Shown here piece after piece: positions 735-17,915 of a stretch of 17,915 bases of DNA. This DNA comes from a virus (lineage: Duplodnaviria; Heunggongvirae; Uroviricota; Caudoviricetes). Location of the stretch: IMG/VR virus record IMGVR_UViG_2703718843_000008. One strand, given 5' to 3'. Within the stretch, counting starts at the first letter, position 1, and each line of letters opens with the position of its first letter. The translations under genes were made by a program, and so were the position numbers. The notes under the pieces were generated by a model. It did not search any database, had not been told where the DNA came from, and saw only the letters and a list, made by a program, of their open reading frames with translations.

Positions 735-1961
735 TTATGCTGGCCAATCCCACTGCTGATAGGCAGAGAATAGGCGCGTGAGCTCAGCAGGCGCAAGAAT
801 ATCAACAATATTAGCTCTGTAGCTATGCGATTTACCTAATGGAACATTTTCGAAATGATTAGCTTGATAAGGATTAAAATCGTGAAGCTCACCTAATGTT
901 GAGATATCGGTATTAATAGTTTTAAGCCAAGAAACAAGAATTACTTTTGCCCCTGTTCTCTGTATGTAAGCTCTTGCCGATTCAAAACTATAGCCTCGCG
1001 TTGTTATATCATCTATAAGAAGTACTGTTTTACCAGGGCCTAAAGGTGGTTTTTTATAGGTAGTTCTAGGATTTCTGTGTGGCTTAGAATTAAGACAAAT
1101 TGTATTAAGTTGATTGCAATGGTCAATTGCAACTCCCTCATTTCTTGCTTTTTGAGATTTTTTGGAAGTCGTATGCCTTAAAATAAGATCTGGGATATAC
1201 GTCTTGCGAAAACATTTTCCAAATATTGAAATCGCTTCATCCATGATATTATTCCCATATCCTTGCTTATGCCCTGGATAAACACTAACATAATTAATCA
1301 TCTTATGAATGCCACTAAAATAGAGACTGGATATTAAGGCACTCGTCCAAAATTCAGGATGGCCTAATCCATGTTTAGCAGCACGAGCATCTTCAGAGTA
1401 AAGAGTATACTCTTCCTTCATGGTGCTGAAAGGAGCAAGTGCATAGAAATTAAAATCACCATCGTGAATTTCATGACACCAAAGATGCTCTCTTAAACAG
1501 AAGGTATCTATAAATCTAGCAATATCTTTAGGGGTTGAAAACTCGAAACCATAATCTGTTTTGTCTGCCCACCATGTAGCTCTTAAAAAGAGCAACTCAC
1601 CATTAACTGCTGTTTGCATGTCGTTTATCGAAGCACCAATGTACAAAGTTTCTGTACTTTCCCAACCCATCAAATCAAGGACATATTTTGTAGCATCCGC
1701 AGTTGGCTTCCCTGGAATGCTCTTATCTTTCGCTCGACAAAGATATTTAAATTCTCCCCAATGCTTTTGTAACACATCCTCTAAAGGGGTTCTTTCATCT
1801 CCGACAACCCACCCCCTGTTAGTGAATACAACAAACTCGATCTTTTTAGTTCTGAAATATCTAATTAATTTATCTACCTCTGCAAAGATTTCGCTATCGA
1901 TCTTTCCCTTAGGCACAAGAATATCTTCAACACTAAGAATCACACCCTTAATTTTGCTCAT
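735..1961 (-). CDS. Two-domain protein: N-terminal HAD-like domain with non-canonical motif I, C-terminal type I phosphoribosyltransferase (PRTase) domain; candidate defense effector
   Basis: 408-aa ORF, ATG preceded by AAGGAAGA. C-terminal PRPP-binding signature GKTVLLIDDITTRGYS. N-terminal HAD-like motifs (FVVFTNRGW; GKP; IGASINDMQTA) but the usual DxD nucleophile position reads SVEDIL. AT-rich. Confidence 0.85.
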   Translation of the reverse strand: MSKIKGVILSVEDILVPKGKIDSEIFAEVDKLIRYFRTKKIEFVVFTNRGWVVGDERTPLEDVLQKHWGEFKYLCRAKDKSIPGKPTADATKYVLDLMGWESTETLYIGASINDMQTAVNGELLFLRATWWADKTDYGFEFSTPKDIARFIDTFCLREHLWCHEIHDGDFNFYALAPFSTMKEEYTLYSEDARAAKHGLGHPEFWTSALISSLYFSGIHKMINYVSVYPGHKQGYGNNIMDEAISIFGKCFRKTYIPDLILRHTTSKKSQKARNEGVAIDHCNQLNTICLNSKPHRNPRTTYKKPPLGPGKTVLLIDDITTRGYSFESARAYIQRTGAKVILVSWLKTINTDISTLGELHDFNPYQANHFENVPLGKSHSYRANIVDILAPAELTRLFSAYQQWDWPA

Positions 1962-1971
1962 TTCATCTTCC

Positions 1972-3036
1972 TTAGAGATCTAAGCTCTGCTGTATCGGCT
2001 GTGCTTTTAAATCATGATTATTATTCAAAATATAATTACTCATCTCATTCAATTCAAAAGGCATTAAAAAAGATAAAGAATTTCTATTTTCTTCAGCAAA
2101 CTTCAATTCTGGTCTACTTTCATACGTAGTAGGAAGATATGGACTCGCTATCTTTTTTGCATACTTAAAAGCATAATCAACAGTATGTGATGTTCCACTT
2201 TTAATATTCCATTCGACTGGTATTAGTGAATCACATAAAGCAGCCTGGATTCTGTTGCGCCTTACAAAATTTTCTGCGCTATATGTTTGTTCAGGTAGAT
2301 ACTCGGTAACGATAGCCCCACCATTAGAAACTATTGCTCGATATAACTCTTTAGAACCTTTCGGATACTCGACAAAAATCCCATTACCCAATACCGCAAT
2401 AGTTGGAATGCCATATCTCAGCGATTCATAATGACAACATTGATCTATTCCTGTCGCCAAACCACTGACTGTTGAAACATCTTTAGAATATAGAGAAGAA
2501 ACAATCAGTTTTACTAGAAAAATACCATCATCCGTTGGCTTTCGTGTCCCCACAATTGCAACAGATTTCTTATTAAGAAGTTCATAATTACCATGAACAA
2601 AAATCCAAAATGGCGGATCGCTTATGTTCTTTAATGATTGAGGAAATGTAGCCTGATCATAAAAGGTGAGCACAATACCATTTTTATTGAGTTCACGAGC
2701 TCTCTCCAGTCCCTTAGACCAAAGGTCTTGTTGAAATGTTTCCCAAGATATATTTTTAGGCAAGGAAACTCTTAGATATCCTGCCAAGGCATCAGCTGTA
2801 TTATCTTTTAATATATTCTTAAATCCAATTTTGGATTGATAGATTTTGCGAAGCGTCCAGTAACCAACCCCCTTTAGACAAGTTAAGGCAAGAAACGCAA
2901 TAATTTCATTTTTCCAAAACTCTCTAACTTCAGTGTAATCTTTATATTCCATTTTACGTTTGCCTTTTAGATTACAACCCGTACTCAACACAAAAAATTT
3001 AGAAAATTGTTGCCAAAAGCATATTATAAATAGCAT
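1972..3036 (-). CDS. DprA/Smf-like (SLOG superfamily) protein; candidate defense partner of the PRTase protein
   Basis: Rossmann-like DprA signature VAIVGTRKPTDDG ... SGLATGIDQCCH ... TIAVLGNG ... YP ... RRNRIQAAL. Stop codon lies 10 nt before the PRTase ATG, so the two are co-transcribed. True start may be the internal ATG at 2952 (MEYKDY...); the first 28 codons are AT-rich and include a TATAAT. Confidence 0.8.
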   Translation of the reverse strand: MLFIICFWQQFSKFFVLSTGCNLKGKRKMEYKDYTEVREFWKNEIIAFLALTCLKGVGYWTLRKIYQSKIGFKNILKDNTADALAGYLRVSLPKNISWETFQQDLWSKGLERARELNKNGIVLTFYDQATFPQSLKNISDPPFWIFVHGNYELLNKKSVAIVGTRKPTDDGIFLVKLIVSSLYSKDVSTVSGLATGIDQCCHYESLRYGIPTIAVLGNGIFVEYPKGSKELYRAIVSNGGAIVTEYLPEQTYSAENFVRRNRIQAALCDSLIPVEWNIKSGTSHTVDYAFKYAKKIASPYLPTTYESRPELKFAEENRNSLSFLMPFELNEMSNYILNNNHDLKAQPIQQSLDL

Positions 3037-9320: not shown

Positions 9321-9365
9321 ATGGTAATTACCATGTAGTCATCATATTCTAGGGTAATTACCATG
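9321..9365. promoter_or_regulatory. Two palindromic operator-like sites in the divergent promoter region
   Basis: ATGGTAATTACCAT (9321..9334, perfect 14-bp palindrome) and GGTAATTACC (9353..9362). The second overlaps the ATG of the ribbon-helix-helix gene. Confidence 0.5.
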
Positions 9366-9536
9366 TCAACACCACAAGAGAAACGTTCCCCACCATTCCA
9401 AATGCGTCTTACCGACGATTTTAGGTTGCAACTCGAAAAAGAAATGCGCAAAGATGGAGATAGCGCGTTGGCAACTTGGATTAAAAGAATTTTACGTAAA
9501 GAACTACAATCACGCGGGATTGACCCTAAAGGTTAA
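9363..9536 (+). CDS. Arc/Mnt-like ribbon-helix-helix repressor (57 aa)
   Basis: PPFQMRLTDDFRLQLEKEMRKDG-DSALATWIKRILRKEL follows the beta-strand/helix/helix pattern of Arc-type repressors. Divergent from the early operon. Not in the ORF track (under 60 aa). Confidence 0.55.
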   Translation: MSTPQEKRSPPFQMRLTDDFRLQLEKEMRKDGDSALATWIKRILRKELQSRGIDPKG

Positions 9537-9568: not shown

Positions 9569-9859
9569 TTAGGGAGTAGGTGATAATCTATTCCCTTTAT
9601 TAATTGCTCTTGCCTTATTTCTCATCCCCTCAAACTGTTGACCTGAGTTTTCTTCAAACCCATCTCGCCACTTATAATAATCAGCAGCGCGCCATCGGGA
9701 CATCCGACCTATTTTTATAGGTTTTGGAAAGCGATTCAGAGAAATCAATCGATAAATCCATTTGTCACTTAATAAACAATCGGAAGTAATAAACTTCATA
9801 TCGATCAGAGAATCCATTGAAGGTCGTTGCAAAGTAGTATTATCATGTTTAGATAACAT
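9569..9859 (-). CDS. AlpA/Vis-family HTH protein (excisionase or regulator)
   Basis: 96 aa; IYRLISLNRFPKPIKIGRMSRWRAADYYKW matches the AlpA-type pattern (FP-P-I-G ... W ... W). GGAG RBS. Confidence 0.75.
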   Translation of the reverse strand: MLSKHDNTTLQRPSMDSLIDMKFITSDCLLSDKWIYRLISLNRFPKPIKIGRMSRWRAADYYKWRDGFEENSGQQFEGMRNKARAINKGNRLSPTP

Positions 9860-9984
9860 TCATCATTCTCCGTTTATCTAAGTCTATTGGCTTCAACACG
9901 GAAAATTAAAACATAGGTTATAAATGAGAAAAATGTGACTAATGAAAAAAATCCAAAATCATTAGTCACAATAATTGTTAACAT

Positions 9985-10809
9985 TTAGTTAAACTTAATG
10001 TTTTTCATGCAACTACGTAGCAAGCTAACAACAGTATCATAGCTCAAAGGTGGTTCTCCGGTCTTAGGCCAGAACTCACTGGCATGTTGAAAAAGATAAT
10101 CAGCTATCGCTGCTGGACTCTCTCTTCTTAGCCTCATATCACGATGATAGAGCGAAATAATAGCCATGAGTATTTCAGTTCGAGGAACAGCATGTTTTTG
10201 TTTTTGCGCCTCAGATTGTGATTTATATTTATTGGCGTTTTTTATCCGTTTTTGTTCGCATAAGACTATATCAATGAATTTTTGAATCTGTACCTTTGTA
10301 ATCCACAAAACCTCAAAAAGATAATAATTTTCTTTTTCATCATAATTTACATAAAGAATTACCTTACAATTTATATTAGGCGTACCCGCCAGTAGAAAAT
10401 GAATAGGCCAGGAATCCGGTTGCCCCTCATGCTTAACTAACAGATCTTTATATTCATAATCAACAGCCCATAAACCGGATATAAAGCATCGAATAAAACC
10501 ATTTTTATCAATTAAATTATTTTCATCAGGGATTCTTATAGAGCTTAAGTCTGACAACATAATATTGCCATTTCTATCTCGTGGTAAATATTTCAGATTA
10601 GATAAGAACTCATCCATTTGACCATCAATCTTCAAACCACATGAAACATCATACTCATCATCATGGAATTCCATGCATAGCTCTACATCTCGTTCTCTGG
10701 CAAACCAGAGTATATCCTTTTCACTACAACCAATTTTTTCTGAAGCTTCATCCAACTGGTAGTAATCTCTGAGCAGAGAATCAGTATTATTAATTTTTAA
10801 AATATTCAT
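9985..10809 (-). CDS. Hypothetical protein, AT-rich orphan cargo gene translationally coupled to the integrase
   Basis: 274-aa ORF whose ATG overlaps the integrase stop (ATGA). Marked AT-rich codon usage; no motif I can recognise. Confidence 0.65.
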   Translation of the reverse strand: MNILKINNTDSLLRDYYQLDEASEKIGCSEKDILWFARERDVELCMEFHDDEYDVSCGLKIDGQMDEFLSNLKYLPRDRNGNIMLSDLSSIRIPDENNLIDKNGFIRCFISGLWAVDYEYKDLLVKHEGQPDSWPIHFLLAGTPNINCKVILYVNYDEKENYYLFEVLWITKVQIQKFIDIVLCEQKRIKNANKYKSQSEAQKQKHAVPRTEILMAIISLYHRDMRLRRESPAAIADYLFQHASEFWPKTGEPPLSYDTVVSLLRSCMKNIKFN

Positions 10810-11996
10810 TTATGAGTACCAATTAGCTCAGATAAATAATTAGCATACCATTGCATCATTTCTCTTCTCCCTTCGAGATATTGGGCATGGTTATAAATTC
10901 CACGAATAGAGTTTTTGTCCGAATGAGCAAGCTGGGTTTCAATCCAAGCGCTGTTAAATCCTTTCTCATGTAGAATTGTACTCATCGTATGCCTGAAACC
11001 ATGTCCCGTAACACGCCCTGCATATCCAATACGTTTAAACACCTGATTGATGCTTGCTTCACTCATAAATTTGCTAGGATCGTTGCGTCCAGGGAACATC
11101 AGCGGGTAGTTCCCAGTTAGTTCTTTCAAACTTTTGAGATGGGATAATGCTTGTTTTGGTAACGGGACAATATGGCTCCTACGCATTTTCATACGTTCTT
11201 TTGGGATCTCCCACACCGCATTATCAAAATCCACCTCTCGCCACTCACCTGCTCGTAGTTCTCCAGTTCGTAGACCTGTCAGGATAAGTAAATGCGCCCC
11301 CAACAATACAATTGGACTTCCTGAATAAGAATTAAGGGCATTAAAGAACTCCGGTAGTTCGTTGGCTTTGAGGAATGGATAGTGGACTGCTTCATGTCCT
11401 TGCATCGCACTGGCAAGATCCGGTGCCGGATTGTAGATTGCCCTACCCGTTACGATGGCATAGCGAAAAACTTCACCGCATCGCTGACGGACTTTCTTCG
11501 CTTTCTCCATAGCGCCTCGAGCTTCTATCAACCTCAGAACTTCAAGCAGTTCAAGGGGCTGAATATCAGCTATAGGTCTGTGCCCAATATGCGGAAAAAT
11601 GTCTTTCTCAAATGCCTCAATGATGTCGGAAGCATAGCCCTCAGACCATTTGGATGATTTCATTTTGTGCCACTCTAACGCCACTTCTCTGAATGGGTTA
11701 AGTGTCTCAATCGCTGCGTTTAAAGCCTGCTTTTTGGCTTTTTTGACTTCGCCGGGATCTTCACCTGCTGCGAGTAGTTTCTTTGCGTCTTCTCGTTTTT
11801 GTCTGGCATCAGCAAGTGTGACTGTTGGATAAACACCAAAGGACAATCGTTTCTCTTTACCAGCAAAACGGTATTTCATACGCCAGTAACGCGAGCCATT
11901 AGGTTCGACCTGAAGGTATAGGCCACCTCCATCAAACAGCTTATAGCTCTTCTCTTTTCCTTTCGCAGCTTCAACCTTGCGGGCATTCAGCATCAT
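10806..11996 (-). CDS. int: P4-type tyrosine integrase
   Basis: N-terminus KSYKLFDGGGLYLQVEPNGSRYWRMKYRFAGKEKRLSFGVYP is typical of P4-family integrases; C-terminal catalytic residues HGFRHT ... Y. ORF-track start at 12065 is a TTG; ATG at 11996 or 11993 (MMLNARKVE) fits the family N-terminus better. Confidence 0.9.
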   Translation of the reverse strand: MMLNARKVEAAKGKEKSYKLFDGGGLYLQVEPNGSRYWRMKYRFAGKEKRLSFGVYPTVTLADARQKREDAKKLLAAGEDPGEVKKAKKQALNAAIETLNPFREVALEWHKMKSSKWSEGYASDIIEAFEKDIFPHIGHRPIADIQPLELLEVLRLIEARGAMEKAKKVRQRCGEVFRYAIVTGRAIYNPAPDLASAMQGHEAVHYPFLKANELPEFFNALNSYSGSPIVLLGAHLLILTGLRTGELRAGEWREVDFDNAVWEIPKERMKMRRSHIVPLPKQALSHLKSLKELTGNYPLMFPGRNDPSKFMSEASINQVFKRIGYAGRVTGHGFRHTMSTILHEKGFNSAWIETQLAHSDKNSIRGIYNHAQYLEGRREMMQWYANYLSELIGTHK

Positions 11997-12160
11997 TGGG
12001 GGCACATTTCCTAGACCGAACAGAACATGCCCCTGATTGTGCCCCCAACCGCGTGTTGATTTCAAGAGACAAGGGTTGACCTCAAACGTATGAAAACAAC
12101 GTAATATATATGTTTTTAAATGATTTTGTTGATGTGGGTTGACTTGGGAAAACTAGGTGA

Positions 12161-12209
12161 TGGTGCCGATAATAGGAGTCGAACCTACGACCTTCGCATT
12201 ACGAATGCG
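12161..12209 (-). pseudogene. ptwF: Partial tRNA-Thr(CGU) gene, 3' 49 nt only (thrW-like att remnant)
   Basis: Minus strand reads CGCATTCGTAATGCGAAGGTCGTAGGTTCGACTCCTATTATCGGCACCA: anticodon stem-loop with CGT anticodon, T-arm (GGTTCGACTCC), acceptor 3' strand and CCA. No D-arm or 5' acceptor strand upstream. The symbol is my recollection of the K-12 name. Confidence 0.75.
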
Positions 12210-12318
12210 ATGTTAATGCATTTTTAACTACTTGAGCAATCAATCAAAACAACATACTTTATATTATAAAACACCAAGTTATAGCAATAAACCCGTTGAT
12301 TGAAATTAACAAAAGTTG

Positions 12319-13719
12319 ATGTTTATTCCCTCCATTTACTTACACCAGCAGTTACATTATTGTAAGACAGCAATTCTCAACTGGAGCCGAAAAATGGCGC
12401 TTTCAAGACAAAAATTTACCTTCGAAAGACTTCGCAGATTCACCTTACCGGAAGGGAAAAAACAAACTTTTCTTTGGGATGCAGATGTAACAACCCTGGC
12501 ATGCCGAGCAACTAGCGGAGCAAAAGCCTTTGTATTCCAAAGCGTATATGCGGGGAAAACCCTTCGCATGACTATTGGCAACATTAACGACTGGAAGATT
12601 GATGATGCGAGAGCCGAGGCAAGACGGTTACAAACATTGATCGATACAGGGATAGATCCACGAATTGCTAAGGCTGTAAAAATCGCAGAAGCAGAATCCC
12701 TGCAGGCAGAATCACGTAAAACAAAAGTGACTTTCTCCGTCGCCTGGGAAGACTATCTTCAAGAATTGAGAACCGGTATCAGTGCAAAAACTAAACGCCC
12801 ATATTCTACTCGATACATTGCCGATCACATTAACTTGTCCAGTCGTGGAGGCGAAAGTAAAAAAAGAGGCCAAGGCCCGACTTCGGCTGGACCATTGGCT
12901 AGTTTGCTCAACCTGCCGTTATCGGAGCTAACCCCAGATTACATAGCAGCGTGGCTGAGTACAGAAAGGCAAAATAGACCTACCGTCACTGCTCACGCTT
13001 ATCGCCTACTACGTGCTTTCATCAAATGGAGTAATTATCAGAAAAAATATCAAGGGATCATTCCTGGCGATCTGGCACAAGATTACAACGTAAGAAAAAT
13101 GGTTCCCGTGTCAGCGAGTAAAGCTGATGATTGCCTGCAAAAGGAACAACTAAAAAGCTGGTTTAGTGCCGTGCGTAGCCTCAATAATCCTATTGCATCG
13201 GCCTATCTCCAAGTACTTTTGCTCACTGGTGCTCGGCGTGAAGAAATTGCGTCGCTTCGCTGGTCAGACGTAGATTTCAAATGGTCAAGCATGCGAATTA
13301 AAGACAAGATCGAAGGTGAACGTATCATCCCTCTCACTCCTTATGTTTCTGAATTGTTAAATGTACTAGCGCAATCCCCAAATTCTGACGTAAATAAGGA
13401 GGGTTGGGTTTTCAGAAGTAACAGTAAAAGTGGCAAAATTATTGAGCCGCGTTCAGCGCACAACAGAGCGTTAGTGCTGGCTGAGTTACCACATATCAGC
13501 CTTCACGGTTTACGTCGTAGTTTTGGTACTTTGGCCGAGTGGGTTGAAGTTCCCACTGGTATTGTTGCTCAAATTATGGGACACAAACCCAGCGCTCTTG
13601 CCGAAAAACACTATCGCCGTCGTCCGTTAGATCTGTTACGAAAATGGCACGAGAAAATTGAGACATGGATCTTAAATGAAGCAGGTATTACCATAAAAAA
13701 CAACGTTGATATGCGTTGA
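12319..13719 (+). CDS. intF: Tyrosine integrase of the neighbouring cryptic prophage
   Basis: Tyrosine recombinase motifs LLLTGARREE ... HGLRRSFGT ... GHKPSALAEKHY. First ATG at 12319 gives 466 aa (ORF-track start 12316 is a TTG). Confidence 0.85.
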   Translation: MFIPSIYLHQQLHYCKTAILNWSRKMALSRQKFTFERLRRFTLPEGKKQTFLWDADVTTLACRATSGAKAFVFQSVYAGKTLRMTIGNINDWKIDDARAEARRLQTLIDTGIDPRIAKAVKIAEAESLQAESRKTKVTFSVAWEDYLQELRTGISAKTKRPYSTRYIADHINLSSRGGESKKRGQGPTSAGPLASLLNLPLSELTPDYIAAWLSTERQNRPTVTAHAYRLLRAFIKWSNYQKKYQGIIPGDLAQDYNVRKMVPVSASKADDCLQKEQLKSWFSAVRSLNNPIASAYLQVLLLTGARREEIASLRWSDVDFKWSSMRIKDKIEGERIIPLTPYVSELLNVLAQSPNSDVNKEGWVFRSNSKSGKIIEPRSAHNRALVLAELPHISLHGLRRSFGTLAEWVEVPTGIVAQIMGHKPSALAEKHYRRRPLDLLRKWHEKIETWILNEAGITIKNNVDMR

Positions 13720-13835
13720 TTCCATTAAAAATCAACATATTACAAAATATCATCAACTATTGATCAAGATAGATTTTCATGTATCGTAATACACAGTTTA
13801 GTCAATGATACAGCAACTACACAGGAGATAAGCCA

Positions 13836-14276
13836 ATGGCAACCCCAGCAACTGTATCCATAGAACCCACTCTGGCAGCTATCAGAGCTCGCTGGTGTAT
13901 TAATTCAAGTAAAACAACTCAATCCTTTAACGATCCTGCGTCCATGGAAGAGGTTGTCGAGTATCTCAAAGGAACATACTCAGCTCTTCGCAAGTCTGTC
14001 GCATGCGCCAAACTGAAAATTTTACATCTTAAACAAAGAATGCAAAATGCTACTAACTTTCTCGCGCGTCTGATGTCATGTAAAAATCAGGCATCCAGAT
14101 CGCATCACAGTACGGCTAAATCAGCTAAAAGTGCCTTATCATCAGATTCAGGTGATGGTAGTGACCCCGACCCCGAGCCCGAAACGTTTCCTTCTGCCTT
14201 CATTACTACCCCTACTAATTCAATAATGCTTAAAGCTTTCTTTGCCAATATCTCAATCACTGAGGTGGCAAAATGA
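13836..14276 (+). CDS. yagN: Hypothetical prophage protein
   Basis: 146-aa ORF, AGGAG RBS, Ser-rich acidic C-terminal region. Symbol from recollected size and context only. Confidence 0.6.
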   Translation: MATPATVSIEPTLAAIRARWCINSSKTTQSFNDPASMEEVVEYLKGTYSALRKSVACAKLKILHLKQRMQNATNFLARLMSCKNQASRSHHSTAKSAKSALSSDSGDGSDPDPEPETFPSAFITTPTNSIMLKAFFANISITEVAK

Positions 14277-14497
14277 GCGCATTCAAACTCCCGGATACAT
14301 CTCAATCACAGCTCATTTCAACAGCTGAGTTAGCTAAAATCATTAGCTACAAATCTCAAACCATTCGTAAATGGCTTTGTCAGGACAAATTGCCTGAGGG
14401 GCTACCTCGCCCAAAACAAATCAATGGCCGCCATTACTGGTTACGTAAAGATGTCCTCGATTTTATAGATACATTTTCTGTACGAGAAAGTCTGTAA
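14273..14497 (+). CDS. Small HTH protein, AlpA/excisionase-like
   Basis: 74 aa, GAGGTGG RBS, start overlaps the upstream stop (ATGA). LISTAELAKIISYKSQTIRKWL ... INGRHYWLRKDVLDFI. Confidence 0.55.
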   Translation: MSAFKLPDTSQSQLISTAELAKIISYKSQTIRKWLCQDKLPEGLPRPKQINGRHYWLRKDVLDFIDTFSVRESL

Positions 14498-14615
14498 TAA
14501 ATTACAGATTTAATTTTATTGATTTATAGCGATGTTGCCCCGAGAAAAATGGGGCAACACTGAGAAATTTCAGATAGTAGTTTTATATTGAGATAACAAA
14601 GAGGTTTCCTTAAAA

Positions 14616-15470
14616 ATGTCTAATAGTGTTACTAATTTTGAGATGAGCAGCGTTCTACCAGGAAAAAAACCTTGTCAAGGCAAAAACAATGAGTCACAGG
14701 TAGTACAGACTACTCCCATAAAAAAACACTCAGTCACGTTCAAAAATCAATCTTCATTAGGAGTAATTGATCATTATGCCAGACTAACAAATAAATCTCA
14801 CTCTTCCGTAATAGCGGAAGTTGTGGATTTGGCTATCCCTATATTAGAAAAATGCAATCGTCATAACTGGTCAATAAATGAAATAAAAAATGACCTGTTA
14901 AAGTTCTCTATAAAAGAAAGCATCAATCGAAGCCGAGGTAAAACAGAAGTAACTCTGGAAGAGTACTGTTCGTTAATCTGGAAAACGAACATCATGAGTC
15001 CATTAAAAATCCCCATTGCAGATTACTTTCAACTGAACGCTAATGATGAATTCATGGGGAAAGATGAAAAAACAGTTATACGTGAAAGGCTATCCTCGCT
15101 AAGGGAAAATTACGATATGGAAAAAGCCATTTACATTTACAATCAAAGACATTTTGATGTAAAGCATCAAAGTGTCTCAGGATATTCAAACATTATTCTT
15201 ATTCATAGAACAACCTTTGAGGGTTATTACTTTGATGCCGGGCAGGCTCTACTCTTGTCAACATCCCAATTGATTATATTCGGGATAAATGAAGTTCTTA
15301 GAAGAAAGGGGATTGTTATGCCTTATCCGGTTGTTTGTTGGATTGATATTTACCATGTCAATGAAATGGTGGTTATGCTGCCAGTGCTCCGCAAAACAGA
15401 TGTTTCCAACCGTGTTAATGTACCGGATGACATCATTATAAACCCATACTCACAAGAGAGCAGAACCTAA
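14616..15470 (+). CDS. yagM: Hypothetical prophage protein
   Basis: 284-aa ORF, AAAGAGG RBS, AT-rich. Symbol from recollected size and context only. Confidence 0.65.
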   Translation: MSNSVTNFEMSSVLPGKKPCQGKNNESQVVQTTPIKKHSVTFKNQSSLGVIDHYARLTNKSHSSVIAEVVDLAIPILEKCNRHNWSINEIKNDLLKFSIKESINRSRGKTEVTLEEYCSLIWKTNIMSPLKIPIADYFQLNANDEFMGKDEKTVIRERLSSLRENYDMEKAIYIYNQRHFDVKHQSVSGYSNIILIHRTTFEGYYFDAGQALLLSTSQLIIFGINEVLRRKGIVMPYPVVCWIDIYHVNEMVVMLPVLRKTDVSNRVNVPDDIIINPYSQESRT

Positions 15471-15496
15471 GAGGTAACAAAGAAGGACAAACAATT

Positions 15497-16195
15497 ATGA
15501 GAGGTAAAATACTACTTTACCAGTTAAAGTATCGCTGGCAATCACTCTCTATTTTTGGTTGTTTTTTATGCAAAATGACATTATTCAGGTATCAAAAAAT
15601 AATTTATGACACCGGAGTGCATCAGATGCGTTCATTTTTTTACACCATATGCAGTAGCGAACAGCAAGAAAGCATTACAGATCATCACTCACTTGCTGAG
15701 ATATGCCAAAAATTTAATATTCTACCTGAACATGTTGTGATCGAGCAGGTAGATATTAAAGAGGTTGTTTCAGAGCAACGTTTACTCAGACAATTGATTC
15801 ATCATGAAATGAACCGGCAGGACACGCTTGTCATTCCAGATCTAAGCTGTCTTGGCAGAACTGTGGAGGACTTACAGAATATTTTATTTTTTTGCCTTCA
15901 AAAAGAAATGTTTATCTACAGCTACCATCCAGCTTCAAGGATAGAGCCTTCTGCTGAAAGTTGCTTGTCTTTTTTGATTGCTCGTCAGGATACGATTGAC
16001 ATTCACAATCTGAAATCAACTAAAAGCCGATATCGACATGTTAAGAAGAAATTAGGACGAAAGGAGGGAAGCAAATACCGACGTGATATCACAATACTTA
16101 AGAAAGGTGGATTTACTCAGGCTGAGATTGCAAAGAAATTGAGTATCAGTTTATCGACTGTGAAGCGGCACTGGAATAACGGAATCATCGGTTAA
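15497..16195 (+). CDS. yagL: Serine-recombinase-like protein with C-terminal HTH, probably catalytically degenerate
   Basis: Internal MRSFFYTICSSEQQ aligns with the resolvase N-terminus MRxFGYARVSTxQQ (Ser kept, the conserved Arg is Ile). C-terminal HTH GGFTQAEIAKKLSISLSTVKRHW. 232 aa. Confidence 0.65.
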   Translation: MRGKILLYQLKYRWQSLSIFGCFLCKMTLFRYQKIIYDTGVHQMRSFFYTICSSEQQESITDHHSLAEICQKFNILPEHVVIEQVDIKEVVSEQRLLRQLIHHEMNRQDTLVIPDLSCLGRTVEDLQNILFFCLQKEMFIYSYHPASRIEPSAESCLSFLIARQDTIDIHNLKSTKSRYRHVKKKLGRKEGSKYRRDITILKKGGFTQAEIAKKLSISLSTVKRHWNNGIIG

Positions 16196-16299
16196 TTCCA
16201 GAAGCTAATTGCAGAGTAACTTTTTAACAGCCATCACAGGCTGGGGCTACCTTCGTCTCAAATTTAGATGTTGGATAGGTATTATATAATGGCATTGTG

Positions 16300-16444
16300 T
16301 ACTCTTACTACCTGTATTCACCAGTAAGAGTAGTAATCAGATCAGTATGTCCGTACTAAAATCTGATACCAGTATATACCGACAACAGTGACCAGGAATA
16401 GCCCTGCCTGTATGGCATCCCTGTACGGTCTGCTATAGACCGTA
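16300..16444. repeat. Structured intergenic region with several inverted repeats and CCTGTA motifs
   Basis: 10-bp IR TACTCTTACT / AGTAAGAGTA (16300..16332); 7-bp IR ATCAGAT / ATCTGAT (16336..16367); hairpin TACGGTCT-gctat-AGACCGTA (16424..16444); CCTGTA(T/C) at 16311, 16407, 16419 and its complement at 16453. Confidence 0.4.
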
Positions 16445-16466
16445 GGACCAAATACAGGTATATATT

Positions 16467-17093
16467 ATGAAAACATATCAAGGTACTCATGGAGTACATA
16501 TCCTCGAATATCAGAGTAAGATTAATAAATTATTATGTTATTTGACTAACCGGTATCCTAGGTTAATTGCTGTACGTGTCGATCTCCACTATCCCAAAAT
16601 AGTTGATAACGGTGACAATATCTGTTGCTTCCCTAACCTGGAACCTGGGGTGATATCCCGGATGCGTGAATCCCTCAGAGCTAAGCTGGAGGCTGACCGT
16701 ACCCGTAAGGTGCGTGAGGATAAACGCATTTACCGTTGCCCTTTATTTATTATATGGGCGAAAGAGTATTCTGAATCAGGTAAATGCCACTATCACATTT
16801 GCCTGTTGTTCAACAAAGACGCTTACTACCACCTCGGGGATTACGATCAGGACGATAACCTTAGAGGGATGATCACAGGAGCCTGGTACAGCGCCCTGAG
16901 ACTGGAGAGAGACGATCACCCTGGTCTGGTCCATTTTCCTGAAAACTGTAAGTATGTGCTAGACACCAATAGTACTGACTTCCAGCAGAACTACCAGGCG
17001 CTGTTAACCCGACTGGACTACCTGACCAAAGTTGAAAGCAAAGTGTTTGGTGAAGGAGACCGTAACTTCGGCTGTAGCCAAATCGAACTGTAA
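16467..17093 (+). CDS. yagK: YagK/YfjJ-family prophage protein
   Basis: 208-aa ORF with AGGT RBS. Sequence recalls the YagK/YfjJ family found in E. coli cryptic prophages (recollection, unverified). Confidence 0.7.
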   Translation: MKTYQGTHGVHILEYQSKINKLLCYLTNRYPRLIAVRVDLHYPKIVDNGDNICCFPNLEPGVISRMRESLRAKLEADRTRKVREDKRIYRCPLFIIWAKEYSESGKCHYHICLLFNKDAYYHLGDYDQDDNLRGMITGAWYSALRLERDDHPGLVHFPENCKYVLDTNSTDFQQNYQALLTRLDYLTKVESKVFGEGDRNFGCSQIEL

Positions 17094-17102
17094 GTCGGTA
17101 AT

Positions 17103-17138
17103 GGCCTTCTCAGTGAGAAGGCCTTATTTGTATTGTTT
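17103..17138 (+). terminator. Intrinsic terminator downstream of the yagK-like gene
   Basis: Stem GGCCTTCT / AGAAGGCC with loop CAGTG, followed by TTATTTGTATTGTTT; 10 nt after the stop. Confidence 0.6.
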
Positions 17139-17183
17139 CAAAAAATTACTAAAATGCAGTTTCGTTACGCAATTTTCTATAGA

Positions 17184-17915
17184 TTACTGATAGTCATCAG
17201 CAAGTCCGCTACTAAATAACGTTTCTGCATTTTCAGCGGTAGCAACAGCATCCTGCACATCCTGCCGTTTCAAATCTAACACTCGTAATTTACCCTTTAC
17301 TTCGGCGACAGATTCGATTCGCCTGTAAGCATCAGAATGATGTTCGGCATATAGCGCAAGTCCTTCCAGTTTGGGCAAAGCATCAGCCAGATGTAGGCTA
17401 TGTGGATCTACCAGGTCCACAACCATTTTGCCATCCTGTTCGGCAAAGAACAGGAAATCGGGACGAACAATCTTGTACTGTTCAGCTTCAACATAAGCGA
17501 TTCCCAGTGACGACTGCCCTGTGTACTGTGGATTACGATACCAGAAAGCAAATCCTTCACGTTTGGTTTCGATCTCAAAAACCTTGGTTTCCCAATGGTT
17601 CAACAGAGCCGGATAGTTCCCGCTTTCGTCACACAACAAATGGTGTTTCCAGACTGGAAGGTCAGCTTCCTTTTCACCTTCACGCACCCTGGTCATTTCA
17701 AACTTGTTCGCCGGCCTGACCAGATCCACATCCTGCGGTTCGGTACTCATTTCGACGATTTGACGATAGGCCTCTTTACGCTCATCTTTCAACGACTTGA
17801 TTTGCGGTGTGTACTCGGCCAGCCACGCCTTCGCCAGTCTATCGGCCTCGCCATCGAAGTAATCCTGCACCTCCATCACCAGCCCCATGCCAGCAACGGT
17901 AACACGAGCCTCCAT
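17184..17915 (-). CDS. yagJ: Hypothetical protein; reaches the window edge, so possibly truncated at the N-terminus
   Basis: 243-aa ORF convergent with the yagK-like gene. The ATG sits exactly at the window end, so the true start could lie outside. Symbol from recollected size and context only. Confidence 0.5.
   Translation of the reverse strand: MEARVTVAGMGLVMEVQDYFDGEADRLAKAWLAEYTPQIKSLKDERKEAYRQIVEMSTEPQDVDLVRPANKFEMTRVREGEKEADLPVWKHHLLCDESGNYPALLNHWETKVFEIETKREGFAFWYRNPQYTGQSSLGIAYVEAEQYKIVRPDFLFFAEQDGKMVVDLVDPHSLHLADALPKLEGLALYAEHHSDAYRRIESVAEVKGKLRVLDLKRQDVQDAVATAENAETLFSSGLADDYQ

Follow-up and report, generated by a model that had tools for sequence, protein, structure and literature searches.

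A conserved, integrase-coupled gene between int and alpA in P4-like satellites is a candidate regulator of the integration and induction switch

The window analysed here is the whole 17,915-nucleotide stretch of DNA from IMG/VR virus record IMGVR_UViG_2703718843_000008 (Caudoviricetes). It carries a P4-like satellite in which a 274-aa open reading frame (ORF) of an uncharacterised protein family, hereafter gene X (9985..10809, minus strand), lies between the integrase gene int and the AlpA/Vis-like gene alpA. We find that X is a genuine gene, made together with the integrase of the satellite, and that it is the built-in third gene of an int-X-alpA cassette in P4-like and related Enterobacterales satellites. 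Neither the int-alpA module nor the P4-like satellite type is new in itself; the third gene conserved within that module appears to be. In the literature we found no description of a conserved third gene in this module with insulation by a terminator and a Shine-Dalgarno (SD) hairpin, nothing on the RefSeq accession, and nothing relevant on a repressor beside int in Gram-negative phage-inducible chromosomal islands (PICIs).

A role in the integration and induction switch is more likely for X than one as a swappable defence gene. The reading we favour, tentatively and with somewhat less than an even chance of being right, is that X serves the int-alpA switch as an accessory regulator or sensor, determining specificity without being an enzyme. 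Three lines of reasoning lead to it. The deep synteny across satellite backbones, the absence of X elsewhere and its constancy while the terminal hotspot swaps its contents suggest that it works with the int-alpA module and not as free cargo. A binding or regulatory protein with a specificity determinant is suggested by the lack of catalytic conservation, together with a hypervariable middle and a C-terminus that is both conserved and basic. Finally, since X is co-expressed with Int and alpA is doubly insulated, its action would fall in the quiescent state or at induction.

Coupling of X to the integrase and insulation of alpA

X follows the gene for a P4-type tyrosine integrase (10806..12065, minus strand), which is given here as its longest ORF and is the first gene of the int-X operon, and whose product carries Arm-DNA-bind_3, Phage_int_M and Phage_integrase domains (Pfam, E 1e-25 to 1e-35; 396 aa in the RefSeq annotation of an identical element). 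The two genes overlap in an ATGA at 10806..10809 (minus strand), in which the X ATG at 10809-10807 shares three bases with the integrase TGA at 10808-10806; the coding strand reads ...ACT CAT AAA TGA in the integrase frame over ATG AAT ATT... in that of X. Inspection of the junction sequence gave no SD before the X ATG, and because of this X would be translated by termination-reinitiation coupling with the integrase. Downstream of X, as a transcription unit of its own, lies the 96-aa AlpA/Vis-like helix-turn-helix (HTH) gene (9569..9859, minus strand), which matches PF05930 with an E of 4e-4 and 20.6 bits, 0.4 bit under the curated cut-off of 21, and which RefSeq annotates in the identical element as a helix-turn-helix transcriptional regulator.

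The GC content of X is 34.2%, compared with 45.3% for int and ~55-60% over the primase core. In every lineage no other gene of the module is as AT-rich as X, which lies 10-14 GC points under its own int, and this extends to a GC-rich element (X 45%, int 57-60%). Searches of Pfam, NCBIfam, PHROGs and PADLOC gave no family match for X; in PADLOC-DB v2 no family was matched at E up to 1, a search in which ShosA and ShosT of the same element score ~1e-90.

The preliminary description of this locus had called a 274-aa minus-strand ORF, starting inside the ATGA that closes the integrase gene, lying between the integrase and the AlpA-like gene, much more AT-rich than the satellite core and without a recognisable motif. 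All of this is borne out by the ORF call and translation, the direct reading of the junction, the Pfam domains of both neighbours, the GC values and the database searches above. Its proposal that X is expressed with the integrase is likewise supported by the ATGA overlap, the absence of an SD of its own and the terminator-like hairpin that follows X in most loci. Its label of "orphan" does not stand, as the relatives described in the next section make clear.

An intrinsic-terminator-like hairpin (9920..9970, minus strand; inverted repeat I4) begins 14 nt past the X stop. It consists of a perfect 12-bp stem, TGTGACTAATGA / TCATTAGTCACA, with a 13-nt loop, followed by TTTTTCTCATTT, and its fold energy of -16.9 kcal/mol (z -4.8) was reached by 0/200 shuffles. 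A hairpin follows X in every locus, and hairpin plus T-run in most of the 17 loci that were folded, with differing sequences; in L013 and L014 the T-run is missing, and L008 and L011 give a weaker terminator reading. Many of the hairpins of otherwise non-homologous alleles have the palindromic core GRGTAAK...CTTACTC, and those of allele class A have GACTAAT. This conserved core exceeds what a plain terminator needs and may double as a protein-binding site.

The leader of alpA is predicted to fold into a second hairpin (9865..9906, minus strand), in which an upstream anti-SD arm UUUUCCG pairs with the alpA SD CGGAGAA (GGAG at 9868-9871). The alpA SD is predicted to be paired in 13/13 alleles (probability unpaired at most 0.27), namely those of the window and of L003, L004, L007, L016, L018-L023, L025 and L026. 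The two arms are complementary but class-specific in sequence (UUUUCCGU/ACGGAGAA, CCGCCGU/ACGGGGG and CCUCU/AGAGG). A TTGAnn motif lies in the loop. By fold-back inhibition the leader hairpin may block translation of alpA from read-through transcripts.

These features strongly indicate that the quiescent integrated element transcribes X together with the integrase, that the two are coupled in translation, and that the int-X unit ends at a terminator of its own. They indicate as strongly that the SD-hiding hairpin acts as a second layer of insulation, so that Int and X can be made while AlpA, the master switch of induction, stays off. We infer that int-X is expressed in the quiescent state and that alpA is insulated from it both transcriptionally and translationally.

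The X family and the int-X-alpA cassette

X DNA is present in 66/5426 complete Escherichia coli genomes, always on the chromosome, beside int and annotated as "hypothetical protein". By allele class the E. coli counts are 66-68 genomes for class A, 13 for class C and 0 for class B. A word-indexed protein search found 18 clusters with full-length relatives, 53-60% identical, in Pantoea, Citrobacter and Erwinia, one of which alone holds 1562 member sequences. An exhaustive profile search of 1.84 billion representatives returned only 44 proteins with an E of 1e-3 or better, which puts the family at about 44 clusters at 50% identity; leaving aside a dozen short fragments, these are 210-373 aa long, most align over nearly their full length, and those with a named source come almost exclusively from Enterobacterales. 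Satellites with an integrase gene 89-94% identical in DNA have, in the X slot, proteins of 262-265 aa that are only 24-31% identical to X (E 3e-26 and 1e-36). A tblastn search with X gave no match in 50,697 phage records, a collection expected to include P4, or in 72,556 plasmids, and a search for the C-terminal domain in other architectures gave only fragments of the X family itself. Many database members are "partial" proteins at contig ends, and draft assemblies seem to break often in or beside X. Judged by these searches, X belongs to a small, fast-evolving family that matches no described family.

For synteny, the ORFs called in each fetched locus were compared with X, Int and AlpA profiles. 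The broad alignment A2 proved too divergent to retrieve loci, and the narrower A3 gave only 11 genome loci. In 24/24 informative family loci int, X and alpA follow one another on the same strand, with alpA 69-126 nt downstream of X. The int-X gap spans -41 to +96 nt. Most loci have either the -4 ATGA overlap, found in nine of the 24, or gaps between -41 and +7. The order extends to members only ~23-28% identical to X and is followed by quite different modules: DUF5375 with DUF927, a P2 capsid with a Zn-ribbon/Toprim/DUF927 primase, or Bro-N with a D5_N/Pox_D5 primase. Many X-bearing elements (L003, L004, L013 and the IMG/VR loci L031-L042) have a P2-family major capsid protein gene just after alpA, then an Icd-like gene, a DUF927 primase and ogr/Delta; these are a capsid-encoding satellite type that has the int-X-alpA cassette in common with the P4-like element of the window.

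The reverse test started from the integrase of the window, with which 74 IMG/VR loci were retrieved. X and then alpA follow in 15/15 loci with an Int at least 84% identical, and in none of the ~50 loci with an Int at most 71% identical was X found. The survey of the int-alpA interval that the preliminary description had proposed shows X-family genes in every interval beside a close Int, together with unrelated ORFs in some other intervals (L047, L091). That description had also held that homology to a conserved core protein of known replication or regulatory role would speak against its proposals of a defence, anti-defence or helper-interference function. X is indeed kept at its position, but only in the elements of this integrase clade and a few others, and no known role of either kind attaches to it.

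The protein is predicted to have four parts. An acidic, winged-HTH-like N-terminal unit (~1-62) is followed by an acidic alpha/beta middle that is hypervariable (~63-190), and a disordered linker (191-205) leads to a conserved, basic and helical C-terminal domain (~199-270). An AlphaFold2 model from a 16-sequence alignment has a mean local confidence score (pLDDT) of 81 and a predicted template modelling score (pTM) of 0.64. Within it the N-terminal unit (15-60) is arranged as beta-alpha-alpha-beta-beta, with strands at 15-17, 44-48 and 56-60 and helices at 18-25 and 29-38, at pLDDT ~84-94. Foldseek comparison of the model with the PDB and with the viral structure library BFVD returned no match at E up to 0.001, nor was a significant structural match returned for the N-terminal winged-helix-like unit. 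PDB sequence-profile searches with the full family and with the N- and C-terminal domains gave nothing beyond chance matches, among them antibody heavy chains and designed repeat proteins. The remote-homology and structure-prediction route suggested earlier yielded a confident model, but no structural match in either library and only chance-level profile hits.

Pfam searches with 10 distant members, with all 25 members and with the separate N- and C-terminal domains gave only scattered sub-threshold matches. Among these, 3/22 N-termini match HTH_17 (best E 0.0086) and single members match MerR_1 or other HTH families, and one Cronobacter member is named "Helix-turn-helix domain-containing protein" in UniRef. 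No member reaches the Pfam gathering score of HTH_17 or Phage_AlpA, and the X of the window has no match. Homology of the X N-terminus to the AlpA of the cassette was rejected by profile-profile comparison (hhalign probability 0.4%).

Three sequence features are common to the family. The N-terminal motif is Y..L.EAA..LGC...D.L, the variable middle holds a KG.W motif, and the conserved C-terminal block reads QK.RHA..R..VLMAAI...WA..L...A..FWP...PPL..D.I..LL..A.K. In the window copy the N-terminal unit is acidic (isoelectric point, pI, 4.2; net charge -9), with a middle of pI 5.3. The C-terminal domain, the best conserved of the parts, is basic in 25/25 members (pI 8.2-9.7). P253 is the one invariant residue of the broad family, and G111, R209, L213, A215, W246 and L254 are conserved in at least 90% of members. 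Since this pattern lacks catalytic residues, X does not appear to be an enzyme; the family has no effector-like domain or conserved catalytic residues, and no member matches a Pfam enzyme family.

This architecture brings up the alternative that X is a recombination accessory factor of this integrase clade, an architectural or directionality protein acting at the attachment (att) sites with Int, for example by favouring integration or holding back excision until AlpA/Vis is made. Its strict linkage and translational coupling to the Int of one clade, the predicted excisionase-type winged-HTH-like N-terminus and the conserved basic C-terminal domain would all fit such a role. We nevertheless consider it unlikely. 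A partner of one unchanging Int and DNA site should stay conserved with both, whereas Int, and presumably att too, is 82-97% conserved between allele classes in which X is 24-34% identical; X alleles recombine independently of int, elements with X knocked out persist stably integrated, and related P4-type integrases work without X.

Sequence evolution, allele exchange and loss of X

Within class A the ratio of nonsynonymous to synonymous substitution rates (dN/dS) of X is 0.09-0.16, which indicates purifying selection, and by this measure X is a constrained protein-coding gene. The possibility of a spurious ORF in an AT-rich spacer is ruled out by dN/dS and by the deep conservation of X. A toxin-antitoxin pair was dropped as X has no partner gene, and an H-NS-like protein as X has no such motif.

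Between allele classes X falls to 24-34% identity, against 82-97% for Int and 67-84% for AlpA, and the identities of Int and AlpA track each other (rho 0.92) far more closely than either of them tracks that of X. Mean pairwise identity within X is 27% for the N-terminal domain, 17% for the middle and 34% for the C-terminal domain. Other early genes are also very divergent across satellite lineages (DUF5375 25-33%, Icd 44-54% and the primase 67% identity), so that X is the fastest-evolving homologous gene, though not the only fast one. The DNA homology of the window with class C elements ends ~30 nt before the int stop (window position 10838) and returns only inside alpA (9662-9814). In the comparison of the window with the Citrobacter locus L018 the synonymous divergence (dS) is 0.31 for X, 0.94 for int and 0.78 for alpA, and this lower value for X than for either neighbour shows that the X allele moved recently between backbones.

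X has also been lost repeatedly. Three IS1 insertions interrupt it at different places, at about codons 25-30, 63 and 195, in E. coli NCTC11121, VG12A2 and 50EVAW (L102, L103 and L104). X is split by a 1-nt deletion in L105, with two further records sharing the shortened length, and is fragmented by frameshifts in L027 and L035. The satellite is otherwise annotated as intact in two of the three IS1 cases (L107, L108), in which X is ~99% identical to that of the window apart from the insertion, and DRT3a/b and SMEK-DUF2326 stand in place of the Shosta system of the window. The terminal hotspot thus swaps unrelated systems as the X slot stays constant within the lineage, and in this it is X that acts like backbone and the hotspot that acts like cargo. 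The repeated insertions mean either that the AT-richness of X makes it a hotspot for IS1 or that its loss is tolerated or favoured. Inactivation of alpA is frequent in P4-like elements (PMC8628076); X knock-outs in intact satellites parallel these alpA pseudogenes, which would fit a factor needed for mobilisation and not for maintenance.

A different reading of the same history is that X is a moron expressed in the lysogen, a single-gene protein of phage exclusion or defence, or else a sensor or decoy, protecting host and satellite from other phages; arms-race diversification would then account for the allele classes. The composition of X, 10-14 GC points below int and the most AT-rich of the module in every lineage, agrees with this, as do its own terminator, its expression with int from a quiescent element and the exchange of its alleles with breakpoints in conserved flanks. 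The several independent inactivations (three by IS1, one 1-nt deletion lineage and the frameshifts of L027 and L035) are as for a dispensable or costly gene, and P4-like satellites are known to carry defence genes (PMC9122126, PMC13586616), that of the window carrying Shosta. On the other side, X has no PADLOC match and no effector-like domain or conserved catalytic residues. One family fills its slot in every case, with no unrelated system ever in its place, and X is not seen outside int-alpA cassettes, on plasmids or in phages, while the defence systems of the P4 hotspot have been reported in many kinds of mobile element (PMC13586616). X also stays constant as the true hotspot swaps its systems. 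The evidence leans away from X as ordinary swappable defence cargo, and we regard a moron of this kind as a serious rival, though a less likely one.

The acidic, non-enzymatic character of X, with its hypervariable surface region, and its fast diversification could also be read as those of an anti-defence or helper-interference protein, which would bind and neutralise a protein of host defence or of the helper phage, its acidic N-terminal and middle regions serving as mimic or inhibitor. This seems improbable. X is expressed with int in the quiescent state and not with the early or late operons of induction, it keeps to the int-alpA slot whatever the mode of helper exploitation (P4-like, capsid-encoding or D5-primase islands), and the viral structures in BFVD contain no match.

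In the switch regulator that we favour over these alternatives, X would not be an enzyme but a binding or regulatory protein. The hypervariable acidic N-terminal and middle parts would set specificity, most plausibly for a helper-phage or competitor protein, and the basic helical C-terminal domain would act on a conserved partner within the cassette, be it the alpA control region or leader, AlpA or Int. X may thereby tune the timing of satellite excision and induction. Several points weigh against this reading. No operator or binding partner of X was identified, and the comparison of the X and AlpA profiles was negative. The HTH-like N-terminus is strongly acidic (the pI of 4.2 and net charge of -9 given above), which is unusual for a DNA-binding HTH. 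The satellite already holds another repressor candidate, a divergent 57-aa ORF with two palindromic boxes over a near-consensus promoter (described below), and most P4-like satellites and PICIs work without X. In addition, AT-richness, a private terminator, allele swapping and repeated IS1 insertions would be equally expected of a defence or exclusion moron expressed in the lysogen.

The surrounding satellite and comparison with known systems

An element identical to that of the window is present in E. coli 2018-02-2CC at tRNA-Thr (thrW), between proA and paoD. Its annotated order begins with int, X, the HTH regulator, a small opposite-strand ORF, an Icd-like gene, two hypotheticals and DUF5375, and continues with a TOPRIM/DUF927 primase, a hypothetical, Psu, an ogr/Delta-like gene, a DprA-like gene and a hypothetical. 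The DprA-like and last hypothetical proteins are ShosA (1972..3036, minus strand) and ShosT (735..1961, minus strand) of a Shosta system (PADLOC, E ~1e-90), which fills the terminal hotspot after delta (735-3036). The primase (890 aa), Psu and the ogr/Delta zinc-finger protein are all present in the RefSeq annotation. A 247-aa ORF before psu is named in three ways across records (hypothetical, septation initiation protein or phage polarity suppression protein), and no homologue of epsilon/ash was identified in the satellite.

The 10-nt att core TCCTATTATC occurs twice in the window, at 545-554 and 12168-12177, and the distance between these repeats gives a satellite length of ~11.6 kb. P4 is also ~11.6 kb in size. 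The copy at 12168-12177, which is the left att core of the satellite (that at 545-554 being the right-hand one), lies in a tRNA-Thr (thrW) remnant (12164..12237, minus strand; Rfam tRNA 45.5 bits) at which ARAGORN called no tRNA. Its 3' 48 nt are identical to thrW in L001 and the rest is foreign sequence, which makes it a hybrid pseudo-tRNA. The same att core at the same tRNA-Thr site has been reported for the PICI EcCIMP1 (PMC11773190). Beyond the remnant a second island (12316-17915) carries a divergent integrase of its own (12316..13719), along with a 146-aa ORF and an AlpA-like gene (14273..14497), and the crossover points of the two neighbouring islands within one tRNA-Thr gene seem to differ.

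Downstream of alpA, a near-consensus sigma-70 promoter, TTGACA-17-TATGAT (9369..9341, minus strand), faces the Icd/primase operon. Two perfect GGTAATTACCATGT boxes, at 9323-9336 and 9353-9366, overlap or flank it, with the palindromic core GGTAATTACC. The divergent 57-aa ORF (9363..9536, plus strand), called as an ORF beside these boxes, looks ribbon-helix-helix-like by eye, and ORF and boxes are probably the repressor and operators of the satellite.

With respect to P4-like satellites, the core set of de Sousa and Rocha comprises int, psu, delta, sid, alpA, epsilon/ash and alpha. In the window the integrase, an alpha-type primase and homologues of Psu and Delta/Ogr are clustered in 11.6 kb, within the ~10-12 kb that the type is given. 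The order differs, being int-X-alpA-...-alpha-orf247-psu-delta-hotspot, compared with int-hotspot-psu-delta-sid-alpA-epsilon-alpha in P4 (PMC8628076).

Other genes have been placed between a P4-type integrase and alpA, and like X they have no assigned function. YfjH of CP4-57 occupies this interval on the opposite strand, and homology to X was rejected (BLASTP E 22). The 198-aa ORF of L047 and the 241-aa ORF of L091 are likewise unrelated (hhalign probability <1%), and by hhalign neither X nor its C-terminal domain is related to these or other ORFs of such intervals. EcCIMP1, at the same tRNA-Thr site, also has a short ORF between int and alpA, EcCIMP1_002, which is much smaller than X, at ~10% of the size of UvrB (PMC11773190).

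Compared with the winged-HTH proteins AlpA, Vis and Xis (HTH_17, Phage_AlpA), X likewise sits in an integrase module, and the modelled topology of its N-terminal unit and the motif L-x-EAA-x-x-LG-x-x-x-x-D-L fit their pattern. In contrast to them, X is about four times longer, has two extra domains and has no member at the Pfam threshold, and the basic residues of their recognition helix are replaced by acidic ones.

The defence cargo of P4 and P2 hotspots (Rousset et al., 2022, PMC9122126; PMC13586616) is, like X, borne on satellites, AT-rich, flanked by conserved genes with breakpoints in them, and occasionally inactivated. It differs in that unrelated systems (Shosta, DRT3, SMEK-DUF2326) swap between near-identical satellites while the X slot holds one family, and in that X has no PADLOC match and was not found in the records of other kinds of mobile element (phage, plasmid).

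What the analysis contributes is, first, the definition of a cassette of three genes, int-X-alpA, which travels among differing satellite backbones, and second, a confidently modelled protein that has no neighbour in libraries of solved (PDB) or viral (BFVD) structures. Helper induction raises alpA expression in a PICI, and the linking step is not described in that work (PMC11773190). X is a concrete candidate for this step, because it is conserved, fast-diversifying and non-enzymatic, is produced along with the integrase, and directly precedes an alpA that is doubly insulated; or else it would be a new kind of satellite-borne exclusion factor.

The closest parallel in position and logic is with the staphylococcal pathogenicity islands (SaPIs). 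Their Stl master repressors are encoded beside int, are ~250-280 aa long with an N-terminal HTH-type unit, and are made in the quiescent state. Stl is very divergent between islands whose modules are otherwise conserved, which probably reflects the different helper-phage proteins that are recognised. X differs from Stl in that no sequence or fold similarity was detected, and in that it follows int and is coupled to it instead of preceding it. Its HTH-like unit is acidic, the islands of Gram-negative hosts rely on AlpA, an activator, and the X satellite has a separate small repressor candidate. The resemblance, which is one of analogy, would lie in the place between int and the excision and regulatory genes, the size, the HTH-like N-terminus and the divergence. 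Pressed to its furthest, the parallel would make X the founder of a new class of integrase-coupled sensor-regulators in Gram-negative satellites, with a fold unseen in solved structures. Such a protein would sense a helper or rival protein by its hypervariable part and, through its conserved basic C-terminal domain acting on the terminator and SD-hairpin region or on AlpA or Int, would release alpA. This is a long shot, but interest would be high if X does link helper infection to AlpA induction, as it would then be an independent Gram-negative analogue of Stl.

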